This document shows, piece after piece, positions 1,179-51,203 of a stretch of DNA of 64,000 bases. The notes beneath the pieces are model-generated. The model was given only the letters and a program-made list of their open reading frames with translations. It did no database searches and was not told where the DNA came from. Position numbers and translations under genes: made by a program. This DNA comes from an uncultured Candidatus Saccharibacteria bacterium. Lineage in GTDB: Bacteria; Patescibacteriota; Minisyncoccia; Phycocordibacterales; UBA2100. The DNA is taken from assembly GCA_964586255.1 (NCBI GenBank), contig CAZPGE010000001.1, positions 64,750 through 128,749 of the forward strand, written 5' to 3'. Numbering within the stretch: position 1 is the first letter of the stretch; the number at the start of each line of letters is the position of its first letter.

Positions 1179-1348
1179 AAGAGCAGGAGCCACTATTCGG
1201 TGAATAATCGCGCCTGCTCCGCGGGCAGGATTCTCCCGCGCCTCTCGCTCTGCCGTCGCAGAGCTCGGGCTGGGCACCGCCTCGCGGTTCGCCAAGTTTG
1301 GCTCACATCGCTCCGGCGTTCGAATCCTATCCAACGGTAGAAAAAGAA

Positions 1349-1378
1349 AAAGCCGGAGACATGCTCCGGCTTTTTTCT
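1349..1378. terminator. Bidirectional rho-independent terminator (gccggag-N-ctccggc hairpin flanked by A/T runs)
   Basis: Sequence aaaaagccggagacatgctccggcttttttc lies just downstream of the minus-strand tRNA 3' end and downstream of ORF 9..1178. Confidence 0.6.
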
Positions 1379-1422
1379 TCTTGGCTCCGCGGGTAGGATT
1401 CGAACCTACGACCAACCCGTTA

Positions 1423-1998
1423 CACGTATCCTCTCGTTACTGAAAGGGGTGGACTATATCATCATCCAGCTCCAGTTTTGGTTCGTCGTTTCGATGAACC
1501 AAAACTGGGGCTGGATGCGAGGCGCTTCCGGTCTTTCAACCGTACTCCCTTGCGGGATAGTCTCTACACCTTCCCCGTCATCGACGGGGCTTGGCTCGGG
1601 ATTGCCCGCGCTTACGCGCTAGGGTTTCCCCGAATTCACCTCGTTTTTCAACCGAAATTACTTTCGGAAGCTGCGTCATGCCGTCGTGCACTTCTGAATG
1701 GCAATTTGCACAGAGCAGGACGCATTTGTCCAACTCGGCGCGCATCTTTTCCCATGATCTCGTAAGGCCGCGCATTGAAAGACCAAAGTCTTTCAATCGG
1801 GGATTGAGATGATGGAATACGAGCGCTCTTTTACTGCGGTTGTACCCGCAAACAAAGCATTTGCCTCCACCGTATGCTAGGGCCATGTCGCGAAGCTTCC
1901 TTCGTCTGGCAGCAACGGCTTTCTTCAGATAGTCAGCACGGTCGGCATAGGTGCGCGTGTCTGGCATACACTAGTGAGTATACCATCGTGTGCGCTCC
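1423..1998 (-). mobile_element. Putative group I intron (tRNA anticodon-loop insertion) carrying an HNH homing-endonuclease ORF
   Basis: The 576-nt insertion sits between the tRNA halves. The upstream exon ends in U and the insertion ends in G, as at group I 5' and 3' splice sites. It contains an HNH ORF in the same orientation as the tRNA. The ribozyme core was not verified. Confidence 0.5.
1578..1967 (-). CDS. HNH endonuclease (intron-encoded homing endonuclease-like)
   Basis: Carries the motifs CFVCGY...LVFHHLNP...CVLLCANCHSEVH (C-x2-C, HH, N, C-x2-C-H), an HNH nuclease signature. It lies wholly inside the tRNA-Asn insertion. Confidence 0.7.
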   Translation of the reverse strand: MPDTRTYADRADYLKKAVAARRRKLRDMALAYGGGKCFVCGYNRSKRALVFHHLNPRLKDFGLSMRGLTRSWEKMRAELDKCVLLCANCHSEVHDGMTQLPKVISVEKRGEFGETLARKRGQSRAKPRR

Positions 1999-2189
1999 AC
2001 AGCGGGCCGCTCTACCACTGAGCTACCGCGGAATATGTATCTGACCAAGAACATCCACCCCGCATCGCGGAATGTGCTCAGAGTATAGCCAAATACGCAG
2101 AAAAATCCATACGTGCGCAAGGGGTAAAGACGCGAAGAAAATGTATAGTGCAAAGAGGCACGCAGTGTGTCCAAGCAAAAGGAAGAAGA

Positions 2190-7280: not shown

Positions 7281-7323
7281 GAGCCTCAGTATATAGCACG
7301 AGGCCCTTGATATACTCAAGCGT

Positions 7324-7980
7324 ATGGCATTTGTAGGCAATGCACTCCTCGTCGCAGGAGATTCCTCGGCGGTTACTGACGTCTTGGAGCGTCTGCGCGA
7401 AGAAGGGATAGACATTCAAAAGAATCCGGATGTGTATGTTCGTAGCTATACGCACTTTGGCGTGGACGACGCGAGAGAGGTGCGAGAGCGTGCAGATCTT
7501 TCTGCGCAAGGGGAAAGGAGAATATTCGTACTTGCGACACCCGTCATGACGACAGAGGCACAAAATGCATTGCTTAAAACACTGGAGGAGCCGCCCGGGA
7601 ATGCTCTTTTCATAGTAGTCGTACCGGCGCCGGAGACGCTGCTTCCCACGCTGCGCTCGCGCATGCAGAGACTCGATGTGGACGCAGATGTGCAAAAGGG
7701 AGCAGTGGAAAGTGGCGCGTTTCTGGCTGCATCACCGGCCGCGCGTCTCGATATGATCAAACCGCTTCTTGAGAAGGGTGATGATGAGAGGCGTGACATC
7801 TCACACATCATCACGTTTCTGTCAGTACTCGAGCGTACGATGGAAAACGTACCTCGAAGCGCTAGCAAGGAAGGCCTTGAGGCAATTTACCGAGCGCGTG
7901 CATTTATGGCCGACAAAGGATCACTGCTCAAGCCTCTCCTTGAACAGGTCGCGCTCTTGGTGCCTCGCGTGAAGCCATAG
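7324..7980 (+). CDS. holB: DNA polymerase III delta' subunit-like clamp-loader protein (short form)
   Basis: ALLKTLEEPP motif typical of DNA polymerase III gamma/tau/delta' subunits, at only 218 aa. Confidence 0.55.
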   Translation: MAFVGNALLVAGDSSAVTDVLERLREEGIDIQKNPDVYVRSYTHFGVDDAREVRERADLSAQGERRIFVLATPVMTTEAQNALLKTLEEPPGNALFIVVVPAPETLLPTLRSRMQRLDVDADVQKGAVESGAFLAASPAARLDMIKPLLEKGDDERRDISHIITFLSVLERTMENVPRSASKEGLEAIYRARAFMADKGSLLKPLLEQVALLVPRVKP

Positions 7981-15732: not shown

Positions 15733-15770
15733 GACTCCGCTGACGCAATGGTATATTCTGTGACGTTCAC

Positions 15771-18064: not shown

Positions 18065-18100
18065 AAGAAAATGGTGAACCAGAACTGCTATAATCGCGGC

Positions 18101-19057
18101 ATGGATTTCAGCATCTTCTCCTTAGGATCCAACGACGCACTCGCCGAGAAGATTGCGGGGCACATGGGCGTAAAGCTTGGCGCGATAAAGACCAAGGTCT
18201 TTTCCGACGGGGAACAGCAGGTGCAGTTTCTTGAGAATCTTCGCGGCAAGAATGTATTCCTTGTGCAGTCGACGAATCCGCCGGCAGACAATTGGGCACG
18301 GCTTTTTCTGGCTCTCGATGCGGCGCGCGGCGCCTCTGCCCGCGAGATTACAGCTGTCGTGCCGTATTTCGGCTACGCGAGGCAAGATAGGAAGTCGAAG
18401 CCGCGCGAGCCGATATCGGCGAGAGTTTTTGCGACGACACTCGAGGCGCTTGGAGCCGACCGCCTGCTCACGATGGATTTGCACAACGACGCGATAGGCG
18501 GATTCTTTCGCACGACCAATGTCGACTACCTTTACGCGCGCCCGGTGCTCATCAATCATTTCAAAGAAGTGTTCAAAGATGCCCTAGCGGCTGACGAATT
18601 TGTGGTGGTGTCGCCAGACGCAGGAGGCGTGGTGCGTGCGCAATCGTACGCAAAGCGACTCATGAAAGATGCAGAGCTCGCTATCATTCACAAAGAACGT
18701 GATATTCCCAATCAAATAGCTCGGATGAAACTTATCGGCGACGTGCAGGGGAAGGTCGCGCTCATTATCGACGATATGGCCGACACATGCGGTACGCTCG
18801 CACGCGCTGCCGCGCTCCTTAAAGAGAGCGGTGCCAAGGAAGTGTACGCCGCGACCACGCATGGCGTACTGAGCGGCAAGGCGAAAGAGACTATCGACGA
18901 ATCTCCAATATCGAAGCTCTTTATTACTGATACGATTTCGACGGAGAGGGAACTCTCGCCGAAAATTGAGGTCGTGTCAGTTGCCGGGATATTTGGTGAT
19001 GCCATACAACGCATCGAAAGCGGGGAGTCGTTGAGTGCTCTTTTTGAGGTAGAATGA
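18101..19057 (+). CDS. prs: ribose-phosphate pyrophosphokinase (PRPP synthetase)
   Basis: MDFSIFSLGSNDALAEKIAG aligns with the Prs N-terminus. AVVPYFGYARQDRK is the PRPP synthetase signature. Confidence 0.9.
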   Translation: MDFSIFSLGSNDALAEKIAGHMGVKLGAIKTKVFSDGEQQVQFLENLRGKNVFLVQSTNPPADNWARLFLALDAARGASAREITAVVPYFGYARQDRKSKPREPISARVFATTLEALGADRLLTMDLHNDAIGGFFRTTNVDYLYARPVLINHFKEVFKDALAADEFVVVSPDAGGVVRAQSYAKRLMKDAELAIIHKERDIPNQIARMKLIGDVQGKVALIIDDMADTCGTLARAAALLKESGAKEVYAATTHGVLSGKAKETIDESPISKLFITDTISTERELSPKIEVVSVAGIFGDAIQRIESGESLSALFEVE

Positions 19058-47767: not shown

Positions 47768-47799
47768 AGAACCGCCTGCATGCGCAGGCGGTTCTTTTA
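47768..47799 (+). terminator. Intrinsic terminator between the membrane protein gene and leuS
   Basis: agaaccgcctgc-atgc-gcaggcggttct followed by tttat. Confidence 0.6.
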
Positions 47800-47831
47800 T
47801 GGCACAACAGGGCGTGTTACGCTGGTCTGCA

Positions 47832-50800
47832 ATGCAGTACGACCACCGGAAAATAGAGAAAAAGTGGCAGGACCTCTGGGCACGCAACAAGATATACACG
47901 ACGGTCGACCAGGTGCCGGGCAAAGATAATTTCTACCTGCTGGTCGAATTTCCGTATCCGTCGGGCAATCTCCACGTCGGACATTGGTACGCGTTTGCGG
48001 TACCCGATATTTTTGCGCGTTTCAATCGCATGCAAGGGAAAAACGTAATGTACCCGATTGGATTTGATGCGTTTGGACTTCCGGCAGAGAATGCCGCGAT
48101 AAAAAATAAGCTCAATCCTCGCGAATGGACTGAGAAAAATATTGCACACATGACGACCCAGATTGAATCGATGGGTACGATGTTTGATTGGTCGCGTCAG
48201 GTTTCCACTATCGATCCCGCGTACTACAAGTGGACACAATGGCTTTTCTTGCAGCTCTATAAGAAGGGATTGGTCTATCAGCGGGAGACTGCGGTAAACT
48301 GGTGTCCGACCGATAAGACGGTGCTTGCGAACGAGCAGGTGACAGACGGAAAGTGCGAGCGCTGTGGTGCTGAGGTGCAGCAGAGGCAGATGCTGCAGTG
48401 GAATATCAAGATTACCGATTATGCAGACAGACTCATAGACGACCTGGAGGCGCTCGACTGGCCCGAGCAAATAAAGGAGTCGCAGAGAAATTGGATAGGA
48501 CGTAGCGAGGGTGCCGAAATAGATTTTGCCCTTGATATGGGGGAAAAGTTCAAGTTTGTCATCCTCCACGGCTTTGAGAGTGGCCCCGATCGCCCGCGCT
48601 GGGTGTGGGCAAAAGCGAAGCTCGAGGAAATGGGTCACGAGGTGATTATCCCCGCACTCCCGAATCCGGGTGCGCCGACTGAGCGCGAGTGGGTGGAGAC
48701 AGCGCTTGCGGCTACATTGTACGATGAGCACACCGTGCTCGTCGGACATAGTCTCGGCGCAGTAGCAGCCCTAAAAGTGCTCGAGAAATTGGAAACACCC
48801 ATCGCGCGCCTCGTTACGGTCGGCGGGTTTGTCAGCAAGAATTTCAAGGACAACCCGCGTCCGTTTGAGAAGACATTTGTATGGAAATTTGACGGTGAGA
48901 AGATACGACAGAATGCTCGCTCAATCACAATCCTGCACGACCCGCGTGACTATGCTGTCTCGGAAGCGCAGGCTAAGGAGCTTGCGGACTTATTGCAGAC
49001 TCCTCTCACTATCGGCACCTCGAATAAGCCTCACTTTACGGGAGAGACGGAGCCCGATGTTGTCATGTGGCTTCGACCCACAATCCGCGTATTTACCACG
49101 CGCCCCGATACGCTCTTTGGCGCGACGTACCTCGTGCTTGCGCCAGAGCATCCGTGGGTAAAGCTCTCCCTTGAGCACGCGAATGTACTGAAAAACAATG
49201 ACGAGGTTCAAAAATATGTTGATGCGTCGTCAAAGAGGAGTGACCTAGAAAGACAGACCGATCAAAAGGATAAGACAGGGGTGAAGCTCGAGGGTGTGGA
49301 GGCACTGAACCCGGCGACGGGAGAGAAGATTCCGCTGTATGTCGCGGATTACGTACTCGGCCACTATGGTACAGGCGCAATCATGGCGGTGCCCGCACAT
49401 GACGAACGCGACTTTGAATTTGCGAAGAAATTTGGTCTGCCGATACGAGAAGTCGTTGCATCGATAGCGCGAAGCATGCCTCCACGCGAGGATGCCGTAC
49501 GTGAGAGCGAGAAGTTTCAGGAACGGGATGCGGTTATGTGCATCGTGAAGCACTGGCAGAAGGACGAGTACCTCTGCATTCAGTGGCGAGATTTTGACGT
49601 GCGAACTTTCATATCAGGGGGAGTTGAAGCAGGGGAGACACCTGAGCAAACAGGCCTGAGAGAGATACGTGAAGAAACAGGGTATCTAAATCCGAGATTC
49701 GTGCGCCGGGTGGGTGGCACATCGTATATCGAATTCTATCATCGCGCGAAAAAAACAAACGTTCGAGCTCGATTCAGTTATTTGTATTTCGAGTTGCAAA
49801 ATGAGGAAAGTGAACCGATGTCGGAGGAAGAGTCGGCGAAACACACTGTCGTGTGGAAGAAGCCTGAAGAAATACTAAGTTTTCTCACTATTTTGGAGAG
49901 AGAGCGTTTGTGGAAACTTTTTAACGGAGGCGAGTCACCATACTCAGGAGAGGGAGCGCTGATGCAATCGGAGGAGTTCAACGGCATGAATACTGGTGAT
50001 GCGCGGAAGGCGATGACCGAGAAATTTGGTCGCATGAAGAAGACGTATAAGCTTCGCGACTGGGTGGTCTCGCGCCAGCGTTACTGGGGTGTGCCGATAC
50101 CAATGATTCACTGCGCGAAGTGCGGCGCGCAACCCGTACCCGACGAGCAGCTGCCAGTGGTGCTTCCCGATGTCGAAGATTATCTGCCGGAGGGGAGCGG
50201 TAAATCTCCACTCGCGAAAGTGGATTCTTTTGTGCACGTAAAGTGTCCACAATGCGGTGCCGATGCGCAGCGTGAGACGGACACATTTGATACATTCGTC
50301 GACTCTTCATGGTATTTCCTGCGCTATACCGACTCGCAGAATCCGCAAGAGTTTGCGGCGAAAGCAAAGCAGGATAGCTGGATGCAGGTGGATCTCTACT
50401 CAGGCGGCGCAGAGCACACGACCATGCACCTGCTCTACAGCCGATTCTGGCACAAGGCGCTCTATGATTGCGGTCTCGTGGCAGACCCTGAGCCGTACGC
50501 ACGGCGCATGAATCGCTCGCTTATCATGGGGCCGGACGGCCAAAAAATGAGCAAGTCGAAGGGTAATGTCATCGACCCAGACGAAGTCGTGGCCACACTC
50601 GGCGCCGATACGGTACGCATGTACCTTGCGTTTATAGGCCCATACAACGAGGTCTCCAGCTACCCGTGGAATCCGGATGCGGTAGTCGGCGTCCGCCGTT
50701 TCCTTGAGCGCGTATGCAGACTTTCCGAGAAGCTTGTCGACGAGGGGGGAAACGATGCAGCGCTTCACAAGACGGTAAAGAAGATGTCGGATGATATACC

Positions 50801-51203
50801 GAAACTAAAATTCAACACCGCTATTTCTGCACTGATGATATTCGTCAATGAAGCGGAAAAGCGCGGTATGACAAAAGACCAATTTGCTCGCTTTGTCCGT
50901 CTGCTCGCGCCATTCGCGCCCCACGTCTCCGAAGAACTTTGGGAGCAGCTCGGCAATACCGGGAGTATTCACTTGGAAGCATGGCCGACATATGAAGACA
51001 AGTATCTTATCGACGACACGGTGTCGATGGCTATCCAGATTGATGGCAAGACACGCGGTGAAGTGTCTGTCGCAGCAGATGCTGACAAGGAGACAGTGGA
51101 GAGAGCGGCACGAGAAGTCGTCGCGGCGCGATTGGAAGGTCAGAAAGTCGCCCGTGTCGTCGTGGTACCAAGGCGATTGGTCAACTTCGTGCTGGAGAAT
51201 TAG
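47832..51203 (+). CDS. leuS: leucine--tRNA ligase carrying two inserted domains: a YdeN/RBBP9-like alpha/beta serine hydrolase (~48530-49080) and a NUDIX hydrolase (~49455-49960)
   Basis: Canonical LeuRS blocks are all in one frame: HVGH (HIGH) motif, TTRPDTLFGATY, AVPAHDERDFEFAKKFGLPI, WVVSRQRYWGVPIP, and KMSKSKGN. Between them lie ILHGFESGP...GHSLGA (serine hydrolase) and GGVEAGETPEQTGLREIREETGY (Nudix box). Total is 1124 aa against ~820-860 aa for a typical bacterial LeuRS. Confidence 0.85.
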   Translation: MQYDHRKIEKKWQDLWARNKIYTTVDQVPGKDNFYLLVEFPYPSGNLHVGHWYAFAVPDIFARFNRMQGKNVMYPIGFDAFGLPAENAAIKNKLNPREWTEKNIAHMTTQIESMGTMFDWSRQVSTIDPAYYKWTQWLFLQLYKKGLVYQRETAVNWCPTDKTVLANEQVTDGKCERCGAEVQQRQMLQWNIKITDYADRLIDDLEALDWPEQIKESQRNWIGRSEGAEIDFALDMGEKFKFVILHGFESGPDRPRWVWAKAKLEEMGHEVIIPALPNPGAPTEREWVETALAATLYDEHTVLVGHSLGAVAALKVLEKLETPIARLVTVGGFVSKNFKDNPRPFEKTFVWKFDGEKIRQNARSITILHDPRDYAVSEAQAKELADLLQTPLTIGTSNKPHFTGETEPDVVMWLRPTIRVFTTRPDTLFGATYLVLAPEHPWVKLSLEHANVLKNNDEVQKYVDASSKRSDLERQTDQKDKTGVKLEGVEALNPATGEKIPLYVADYVLGHYGTGAIMAVPAHDERDFEFAKKFGLPIREVVASIARSMPPREDAVRESEKFQERDAVMCIVKHWQKDEYLCIQWRDFDVRTFISGGVEAGETPEQTGLREIREETGYLNPRFVRRVGGTSYIEFYHRAKKTNVRARFSYLYFELQNEESEPMSEEESAKHTVVWKKPEEILSFLTILERERLWKLFNGGESPYSGEGALMQSEEFNGMNTGDARKAMTEKFGRMKKTYKLRDWVVSRQRYWGVPIPMIHCAKCGAQPVPDEQLPVVLPDVEDYLPEGSGKSPLAKVDSFVHVKCPQCGADAQRETDTFDTFVDSSWYFLRYTDSQNPQEFAAKAKQDSWMQVDLYSGGAEHTTMHLLYSRFWHKALYDCGLVADPEPYARRMNRSLIMGPDGQKMSKSKGNVIDPDEVVATLGADTVRMYLAFIGPYNEVSSYPWNPDAVVGVRRFLERVCRLSEKLVDEGGNDAALHKTVKKMSDDIPKLKFNTAISALMIFVNEAEKRGMTKDQFARFVRLLAPFAPHVSEELWEQLGNTGSIHLEAWPTYEDKYLIDDTVSMAIQIDGKTRGEVSVAADADKETVERAAREVVAARLEGQKVARVVVVPRRLVNFVLEN

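Follow-up and report, generated by a model that had tools for sequence, protein, structure and literature searches.

Identity of the split tRNA gene

The minus strand of the DNA analysed here, a 64-kb stretch of contig CAZPGE010000001.1 (64,000 nucleotides, hereafter the window), contains a tRNA gene whose anticodon loop is interrupted by 576 nt carrying an open reading frame (ORF) for an HNH-type nuclease. This locus raises the question of which tRNA is encoded, whether the interruption can be spliced out and what the nuclease is for. We consider it highly probable that this is an expressed Patescibacteria tRNA-Asn(GUU) gene, in which a self-splicing group I intron of 576 nt, belonging to subgroup IA, separates U35 from U36 and in turn hosts an HNH homing-endonuclease gene. 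An earlier reading made from the letters alone (the sequence-only reading) had proposed a tRNA-Asn(GUU) gene split by a group I-like intron with an HNH ORF in the orientation of the tRNA, and all of its coordinates hold.

When the two exons (2032-1999 and 1422-1382, minus strand) were joined, a sequence of 75 nt was obtained, TCCGCGGTAGCTCAGTGGTAGAGCGGCCCGCTGTTAACGGGTTGGTCGTAGGTTCGAATCCTACCCGCGGAGCCA, which ARAGORN folds as a canonical tRNA-Asn(GTT): its acceptor stem has 7 bp, the anticodon loop reads CUGUUAA, the discriminator base is G73 and the CCA is encoded. The 576-nt insertion is preceded by a U and has G as its final base, as had been noticed in the sequence-only reading. The assignment to Asn, which that reading had drawn from the joined exons, is ambiguous on the letters alone. 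In fact, GU is repeated at both junctions, and for this reason either U33 or U35 can be taken as the base in front of the 576 nt; in the window by itself, each choice leaves U as the base preceding the intron and G as its last. With the option -i, ARAGORN annotates the window as Thr(tgt) i(33,576), a tRNA-Thr(UGU) with the intron two bases further 5', and it does likewise for about half of the relatives. Since the same intron is thus read as Thr(UGU), the Asn assignment needed comparative tests.

A total of 83 related loci was collected, and the split gene was found again in 71 distinct relatives. Exon 1 ends in CUGU in all 71. With the intron placed at 35/36, all relatives (71/71) have G as its terminal base (omega-G) and GUU as the anticodon, whereas the 33/34 placement gives a terminal G in 43 relatives and A in 28, with an anticodon that drifts between UGU and CGU. 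The discriminator is G73 in every relative (71/71), and 69/71 share the acceptor end U1-A72/C2-G71/C3-G70, which we take to be typical of bacterial tRNA-Asn. A scan of metagenomes for the ligated junction retrieved 26 contigs with uninterrupted tRNA-Asn genes. One of these genes (L168) matches the predicted spliced product at 75/75 positions and reads CTGTTAA, and six more deviate from the joined exons at the CCA end only. The spliced product of a relative has been sequenced and corresponds to 35/36 (PMC13011429). On these comparative grounds, namely the omega-G, the acceptor end with G73, the uninterrupted homologues and the register of P1 described below, we take the gene to be a tRNA-Asn(GUU) split between U35 and U36.

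Fold of the intron

The fold and the boundaries of the intron were established computationally. The group I intron is the sole non-tRNA Rfam family in the window: the full RF00028 model (1-253) matched positions 1713-1430 of the minus strand with 83.3 bits and E = 1e-19, the gathering score being 50, and this bears out the proposed intron class. The score lies near the top of the range of the relatives (54.8-86.6). The first helix of the Rfam model (GCAAAUUGC.../...GGCAUGACGC) falls inside the ORF and was rejected, as comparison with ORF-less introns indicates that it is neither P1 nor P2.

A model from P2 to P9 was drawn by hand on an alignment of 52 sequences, with P7 treated as a pseudoknot, and it covers P2, P3, P4, P5/P5a, P6/P6a, P7, P7.1, P7.2, P8 and P9 (Table 1). 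Standard pairs occupy 91.6% of the cells, as compared to 36-47% when the 3' partners are slid by 1-3 columns. Double-sided changes were found in 41 of the 58 pairs, and none of 500 shuffles matched any of these measures. Compensatory changes support the core helices P3, P4, P5, P6, P8 and P9. P7.1 and P7.2, located between the 5' strand of P7 and the 3' strand of P3, fit subgroup IA, as published for the family (PMC13011429).

The internal guide sequence and P7, which had not been found by eye in the sequence-only reading, could both be placed. The sequence GCAGC is invariant in the 52 sequences. In the ORF-less relatives L023 (260 nt) and L072 (253 nt), the exon CUGU is followed by a loop of 5-9 nt, by GCAG and then by P2. 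The GCAG of the window (1674-1671) stands 324 nt into the intron, and by comparison with the short loop of the ORF-less relatives the ORF therefore fills the P1 loop. The wobble at the 5' splice site is U35-G1674. The exon side of P1 cannot covary, because it is the invariant anticodon loop. The adjacent pair, between base 1 of the intron and the base 5' of GCAG, is present in 65/68 loci (G-C 57, A-U 4, C-G 3, U-A 1); the shuffle mean was 52.6, and 0/2000 shuffles reached the observed count. This covariation (CUGU+N with N'GCAG) is in the 35/36 register. Taken together, the Rfam match, the covarying core, the P1 wobble and the omega-G identify the insertion, as far as sequence comparison can, as a group I intron.

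The HNH endonuclease gene

The ORF encodes 129 residues in the orientation of the tRNA. The protein has about 1,400 detectable homologues. In an alignment with 27 of them, C37, C40, H52, H53, C86, N88 and H90 (CxxC...HH...CxNCH) are invariant, and C89 and H94 are conserved in at least 90%. In comparisons with 24 indel-free relatives, non-synonymous differences were 0.11-0.31 and synonymous ones 0.67-0.94 (saturated), with dN/dS not higher than 0.16 where computable. The much lower level of non-synonymous differences indicates that the gene is maintained, and the residue pattern and substitution rates characterise the ORF as an HNH endonuclease under strong purifying selection.

In the AlphaFold model, residues 1-100 have a pLDDT of about 90, and residues 103-129 are below 50 and disordered. 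The best fold matches were all HNH nucleases (the HNH domain of Cas9, Cap5, the Gme nicking enzyme and T4 endonuclease VII). By sequence profile, the closest solved relative is 6ME0, the DNA-binding/endonuclease module of a group II intron maturase (E = 1.7e-4). The Pfam model AI2M-like_HNH also gave a weak match to the ORF, and NCBIfam contains no model for this protein.

The sequence-only reading had remarked that the ribozyme core must overlap the ORF or be very compact, and the overlap is now evident at the level of bases. The last 97 nt of the ORF (1674-1578; codons 98-129) are at the same time the guide sequence, P2, P3, P4, P5 and half of P6. Among ORF-bearing relatives, the frame crosses the guide sequence in 56/58; the position of the stop ranges from P2 (32 cases) to beyond P7 (3 cases), and in the window the stop is reached in the P6 loop, 94 nt after the guide begins. 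The structure model thus suggests that the C-terminal tail is ribozyme sequence read in frame, outside the folded protein. The conserved tail of some homologues ('...TQLP...GEFGETL...GQSRAKP') is best explained as conservation of the RNA read in frame.

A promoter-like motif and a hairpin at the start of the ORF

The motif TGGTATACT precedes the ATG of the ORF and resembles an extended -10 element. Its general form, TGnTAnAnT, occurs within the first 75 nt of 54/67 ORF-bearing introns (1.8 expected), 3-10 nt (mostly 6 or 9) ahead of an in-frame ATG. Across the window such motifs are not enriched (7 found, 8.2 expected), and only their placement at gene starts is suggestive. One is located at 7308-7316 (+), and 7 nt separate it from the ATG of a DNA polymerase III delta'-like gene (7324-7980); another at 18086-18094 (+), 6 nt before the ATG of the PRPP synthetase gene (18101-19057); a third at 15749-15757 (+), 13 nt before a tRNA-Ala gene (15771). 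Given these positions ahead of two real genes and a tRNA, leaderless transcripts are plausible in this host, and the pattern suggests that the genome may use promoters without a -35 element and leaderless mRNAs.

The bases of this motif also form the 5' arm of a hairpin, UGGUAUAC/GUAUGCCA, which has the AUG in its 3' arm (Table 1). At least six contiguous base pairs of this hairpin are possible in 43/52 distinct loci, as compared to a shuffle mean of 10.5 (maximum 20), and the changes of partners observed are from G-C to A-U, C-G and U-A. Viral homologues of the nuclease mostly lack the combined -10/hairpin unit, which was found in just 4/68 of them. This unit is therefore, judging from its distribution, specific to the Patescibacteria branch of the HNH family.

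Relatives of the nuclease outside introns

In five Patescibacteria loci (L023, L071, L072, L075 and L077), the HNH gene lies outside a short ORF-less intron (192-331 nt), beside tRNA-Asn (see L072 and L075 in Table 1). These free-standing genes are found just upstream of, just downstream of or divergent to the tRNA-Asn gene, and they retain the TGGTATAC...hairpin unit before their start.

Relatives with 42-60% identity were also detected on at least 570 viral contigs, where they lie in phage tRNA arrays without a group I core. The viral loci are L084-L163 (IMG/VR contigs), L164 (Synechococcus phage S-H38) and L165 (Salmonella phage Felix O1). The ends of the phage copies typically fall 0-30 nt short of a tRNA gene, most often tRNA-Asn(GTT), or 7 nt within it. 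In 37/66 distinct loci tRNA-Asn is the nearest tRNA on at least one side, and in 22/44 loci it is the nearest downstream tRNA, though Asn accounts for 14.5% of the tRNAs there. In the cyanophage S-H38 an unannotated HNH copy (L164:1501-1806) ends 7 nt inside tRNA-Asn, and in Felix O1 an annotated HNH gene (L165:1312-1797) ends 7 nt inside tRNA-Ile. In several phage loci the HNH gene is flanked by two tRNA-Asn(GTT) calls (L086:1458-1545, L095:1480-1570, L107:784-870 and L119:876-961 among them). One call of each pair spans 86-91 nt, and its G1-C72 acceptor end and long extra arm are unusual in an Asn tRNA; it is perhaps an artefact of ARAGORN, or else a phage tRNA of an odd type.

The syntenic locus L189 has the same gene order as the window and an fmt gene 87% identical to that of the window, and its tRNA-Asn gene is uninterrupted and differs from the joined exons in the CCA only. 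Therefore, the intron with its HNH gene is polymorphic at this locus. Directly downstream of the split tRNA-Asn, two related genomes carry a tyrosine integrase with a helix-turn-helix (HTH) gene in one case and an rve-family transposase in the other (L002:2116-3414 and L003:2157-3179), and because of these genes tRNA-Asn seems to be an integration hot spot in the lineage. In the window the same position is occupied by MurL.

The same cassette occurs in metagenome-assembled genomes (MAGs) labelled Burkholderiales, Gammaproteobacteria, Methylomirabilota and Omnitrophica (L012, L017, L047 and L078). The 566-nt intron of L017 agrees in length, ends and 5' region with that of L016, a locus which the same study provided under the label 'Saccharibacteria'; L012 is similar to a contig of Nomurabacteria. 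These off-phylum contigs are probably mis-binned and do not represent transfer events.

Proposed mechanism and alternative explanations

In the precursor, C32-U35 and the first base of the intron (G1) would pair with the guide C-GCAG, 324 nt downstream, to give P1, in which the U35-G wobble would mark the 5' splice site. The core P3-P9 would fold with P7 as the guanosine pocket, and free guanosine would attack after U35; the terminal G1423 would then enter the pocket and the exons would be ligated to give a normal tRNA-Asn. The HNH gene takes up the whole P1 loop, and its frame goes on through the guide and P2-P5 as far as a stop codon in the P6 loop. Transcription of the nuclease gene probably begins at an extended -10 promoter of its own and gives a leaderless mRNA. 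Whether the copy of this promoter in the pre-tRNA pairs with the start-codon region and so keeps ribosomes off the ribozyme is, in our judgement, evenly balanced. A transcript starting at the internal promoter would lack the 5' arm of the hairpin, and its AUG would be free for translation. The enzyme would cut intron-less tRNA-Asn genes near 35/36, and repair would copy the intron into them. The presence or absence of the intron at a syntenic locus, the purifying selection and the relatives adjoining tRNA-Asn genes point, indirectly, to such a homing function.

Several points weigh against this interpretation. The splicing of the window's own intron is deduced by analogy with a member of the family that splices precisely in vitro. 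P1 has 5 bp only and must form across 324 nt. A P10 helix, between UAACGG of exon 2 and the bases 5' of the guide, was not found in the window, the ORF-less relative L023 having a possible one (GUUA/UAAC); P10 was treated as absent or unneeded, since the anticodon stem can hold the exons together. P7 is complementary in 52/52 sequences (100% paired) and is invariant, so that covariation neither supports nor contradicts it. A scan with the sigma-70 consensus found no promoter for the split tRNA gene, a bare TATACT at 2087-2082 being a candidate at most. As regards the nuclease, its score for the Pfam HNH profile is a marginal pass (22.3 bits, with a cut-off of 21.4), and its fold matches were non-significant (E of 0.16 or higher). 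Finally, the bases of the -10 motif also make up the hairpin arm, and their conservation could be accounted for by either of the two functions alone.

The alternative that survives best, although we consider it unlikely, is that the intron splices and the HNH protein no longer acts in homing, being kept for ribozyme folding or for a role in the host and inherited vertically. Selfish nucleases usually decay once fixed, and this protein is under strong purifying selection at a syntenic locus across very divergent Patescibacteria classes; moreover, among solved proteins it comes closest to the DNA-binding/endonuclease module of a group II intron maturase, and limited horizontal transfer of these introns has been argued (PMC13011429). 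However, the catalytic and zinc-binding residues are invariant, and fairly close relatives differ at this locus in having or lacking the intron with its gene. A role in folding must also face the existence of ORF-less introns in the family, one of which splices protein-free in vitro, and the related free-standing genes adjoin phage tRNA-Asn genes, as homing genes adjoin their targets.

Less probable still is that the locus is a relic, in which the intron no longer splices and the split tRNA-Asn is a pseudogene complemented by an intact copy elsewhere in the genome. With 64 kb of the genome in view, a second tRNA-Asn could lie outside the window, and splicing of this intron is, as said, deduced. 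Against this, all the conserved positions and helices of the core are intact, with an Rfam score near the top of the range of the family; working uninterrupted genes have the same sequence as the exons, a terminator-like hairpin lies downstream of the CCA, and the ORF is under purifying selection. Plain ARAGORN found seven other tRNAs within the window, none of them for Asn, and intron-bearing and intron-less copies of one anticodon rarely coexist (PMC13011429). The weakest alternative, a tRNA-Thr(UGU) with the same 576-nt intron at 33/34, can practically be set aside: the ARAGORN call that favours it, with the U before and the G at the end of the intron that the GU repeat allows, was rejected on account of the omega-G, the discriminator base and the Asn-like tRNA body (U1-A72, G73), the intron-less homologues and the P1 register, and the same miscall by ARAGORN and tFind is documented in the work that sequenced the spliced product of a relative (PMC13011429).

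Within the preferred reading of a spliced tRNA-Asn with a homing nuclease, we tentatively put forward a further idea, which is possible but on balance doubtful. The nuclease gene might be an autonomous cassette, made up of the extended -10 promoter, its RNA copy pairing with the start codon and a leaderless ORF, and it might belong to an HNH family specialised in tRNA genes, above all tRNA-Asn, that has been caught in three stages. In these it would stand beside an uninterrupted phage tRNA-Asn, beside a Patescibacteria tRNA-Asn with an ORF-less intron, and, as in the window, inside the P1 loop, where its 3' end is joined to the guide. If so, these loci would represent a natural series leading from a separate homing gene and a simple ribozyme to a mobile intron that combines the two, and the promoter within the hairpin would be a switch that keeps ribosomes off the ribozyme in the pre-tRNA.

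Relation to known introns and homing genes

The sequence-only reading regarded an Asn(GUU) intron with an HNH ORF as unusual, and this view is outdated. Nakagawa et al. (mSystems 2026) described group I introns at 35/36 in 15 tRNA-Asn(GUU) genes from 95 complete Patescibacteria genomes; four of the 15 carry PF01844 HNH genes, and the introns were classed as IA (PMC13011429). The same work demonstrated precise self-splicing in vitro, with an omega-G-to-C control, reported the Thr(UGU) 33/34 miscall by ARAGORN and tFind, observed that intron-bearing and intron-less copies with the same anticodon seldom coexist, and argued that horizontal transfer of such introns is limited (PMC13011429). The tFind type 'Asn.4Ug' is already listed, as cited in PMC13011429 (tFind preprint, Williams 2020, bioRxiv 10.1101/2020.01.27.920355).

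The intron of the window shares with those of PMC13011429 the host phylum, the tRNA, the site, the U before and the G at the end, the IA features and the Thr(UGU) miscall. Its core is about 70% identical to that of the GCA_016700035.1 intron, which was spliced in vitro at 35/36 (PMC13011429), and its HNH protein is 55% identical to the published Paceibacteria one in GCA_016699425.1. The copy described here comes from the metagenome contig ERZ27247837 k141_1400151, of 325,912 bp, and is outside the 95 complete genomes. The element is thus a further member of a published class and not a new kind. In the text of PMC13011429 the words promoter (except for T7), internal guide, free-standing and leaderless are not used, and for this reason we regard the location of the ORF in the P1 loop, the frame across the guide, the -10/hairpin unit and the free-standing relatives as additions made here.

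The classical bacterial tRNA introns are found in cyanobacterial tRNA-Leu(UAA) at 34/35, in tRNA-fMet at 33/34 and in proteobacterial tRNA-Arg and tRNA-Ile at 36/37, and a few of them carry homing endonuclease genes; subgroup IC makes up 81% of all bacterial tRNA introns (PMC13011429). Unlike these introns, which are mostly IC, occupy other positions of the loop and have LAGLIDADG or PD-(D/E)XK nucleases if any, the intron of the window is IA-like (P7.1/P7.2), is inserted at 35/36 and has an HNH nuclease.

A closer parallel in organisation is the td intron of phage T4, which belongs to subgroup IA and has P7.1 and P7.2; the gene of its endonuclease, I-TevI, has an intron-internal promoter, and a hairpin hides its start in longer transcripts. 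I-TevI itself is a GIY-YIG enzyme; its gene, which has a ribosome-binding site, occupies the P6 loop, and the intron interrupts a gene for a protein. The logic of an internal promoter with a start-hiding hairpin resembles the one that we propose, conditionally, for TGGTATACT and the AUG hairpin. The window differs from td in having an HNH gene in the P1 loop of a tRNA intron, apparently leaderless and overlapping the guide and half of the core.

In cyanophages, a free-standing HNH gene stands beside the intron-bearing psbA gene. Free-standing phage homing endonuclease genes beside their targets include T4 SegB, in the tRNA region, and T4 mobE (PMC2790892, PMC13096335, PMC2988022). The HNH relatives in phage tRNA arrays and in the five Patescibacteria loci are free-standing like these, whereas in the window the intron encloses the gene. 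For none of the members of this HNH family did we find cleavage data in the literature.

As a single instance, the locus adds nothing fundamentally new to the biology of these introns. It is a real and probably essential tRNA-Asn gene, which standard tools miss or mislabel as tRNA-Thr, and this miscall distorts the estimates of tRNA complement and completeness of Patescibacteria genomes, as already argued (PMC13011429). HNH-bearing copies are far commoner than the four in complete genomes, relatives of the protein being present in at least 554 species-representative genomes. The base-level structure, with the guide sequence and half of the ribozyme core inside the reading frame of the nuclease, leads to testable ideas on how expression of the nuclease is kept from disturbing splicing and on where the nuclease gene came from. 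The -10/hairpin unit at the start of the ORF and the free-standing HNH relatives beside tRNA-Asn in Patescibacteria and in phage tRNA arrays may be new details, as far as sequence comparison goes.

Table 1. Features of the split tRNA-Asn locus. Positions are those of the window, except in the last two rows, which refer to the loci named there.
Feature	Position	Strand	Remarks
tRNA-Asn(GUU) exon 1	1999-2032	-	Acceptor 5' strand, D arm, anticodon stem 5' strand, loop C32 U33 G34 U35
tRNA-Asn exon 2	1382-1422	-	U36 A37 A38, anticodon stem 3' strand, variable loop, T arm
tRNA-Asn exon 2, remainder	1382-1422	-	Acceptor 3' strand, G73 and encoded CCA (1384-1382); ARAGORN; identical to uninterrupted tRNA-Asn genes
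Group I intron, 576 nt	1423-1998	-	Between tRNA positions 35/36; first base G1998, last omega-G1423
Hairpin like an intrinsic terminator, 12 bp, then T run	1347-1375	-	Starts 7 nt past the CCA
HNH endonuclease ORF, 129 aa	1578-1967	-	ATG 1967-1965, TGA 1580-1578
Pfam HNH (PF01844) match, residues 37-95	1683-1859	-	Profile also matches the D/En module of group II intron maturase 6ME0
TGGTATACT, extended -10-like motif	1977-1985	-	9 nt before the ORF ATG; candidate internal promoter of a putative leaderless mRNA
Hairpin UGGUAUAC (1985-1978)/GUAUGCCA (1969-1962)	1962-1985	-	8 bp, -10.4 kcal/mol; AUG in 3' arm
Internal guide sequence C-GCAG	1671-1675	-	Pairs with exon C32-U35 and intron G1 (P1); within ORF codons T98, Q99
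P2 hairpin CCGAAA-GUAA-UUUCGG	1652-1667	-	Both-sided changes in 5/6 pairs; 95% of cells paired
P3, 1643-1637/1524-1518	1518-1643	-	Encloses P4-P6, P7 5' strand, P7.1, P7.2; 98% paired, 4 pairs changed on both sides
P4, 1633-1628/1601-1596	1596-1633	-	99.7% paired; CG<->GC, GC<->CG and GC<->UA swaps in about half of the sequences
P5, 1624-1622/1607-1605; P5a, 1619-1616/1611-1608	1596-1633	-	Covariation alignment
P6, 1595-1593/1570-1568; P6a, 1589-1585/1577-1573	1568-1595	-	ORF stop codon inside the P6a loop
P7 pseudoknot, GACUA 1562-1558/UAGUC 1456-1452	1452-1562	-	Conserved guanosine-binding helix
P7.1, 1557-1554/1549-1546, UCCC-GCAA-GGGA	1529-1557	-	Double changes in 3/4 pairs
P7.2, 1542-1539/1532-1529, CGGU-UGAAAG-ACCG	1529-1557	-	Double changes in 4/4 pairs
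P8, long hairpin, 1517-1513/1467-1463	1463-1517	-	94% paired; 4 pairs changed on both sides
P9 hairpin CCUUUC-AGUAAC-GAGAGG, then AUACGUG ending in omega-G1423	1430-1447	-	72% paired; alignment rough here
Free-standing HNH gene, locus L075	1201-1518		tRNA-Asn from 1579
Free-standing HNH gene, locus L072	1183-1497		tRNA-Asn 793-1121

Host and neighbouring genes

The leucyl-tRNA synthetase (LeuRS) and the penicillin-binding protein of the window fall in clusters of at least 90% identity with proteins of Minisyncoccota/Parcubacteria MAGs, and nearly all of the 80 related genome loci carry candidate phyla radiation (CPR) lineage labels. By these affiliations, we take the host to be a member of the Patescibacteria (Minisyncoccota/Parcubacteria).

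The upstream neighbours are fmt, HPF and then a small ORF, an order that recurs in related genomes. The small ORF (2148-2522, +), between HPF and tRNA-Asn, has no Pfam match and is 56% identical to its homologue in L189; in related genomes its slot is occupied by a glutaredoxin-like gene. The LeuRS gene (47799-51203, +) encodes 1134 residues, which the bacterial LeuRS model of 843 positions matches in three separate stretches, and the protein therefore has about 290 extra residues.

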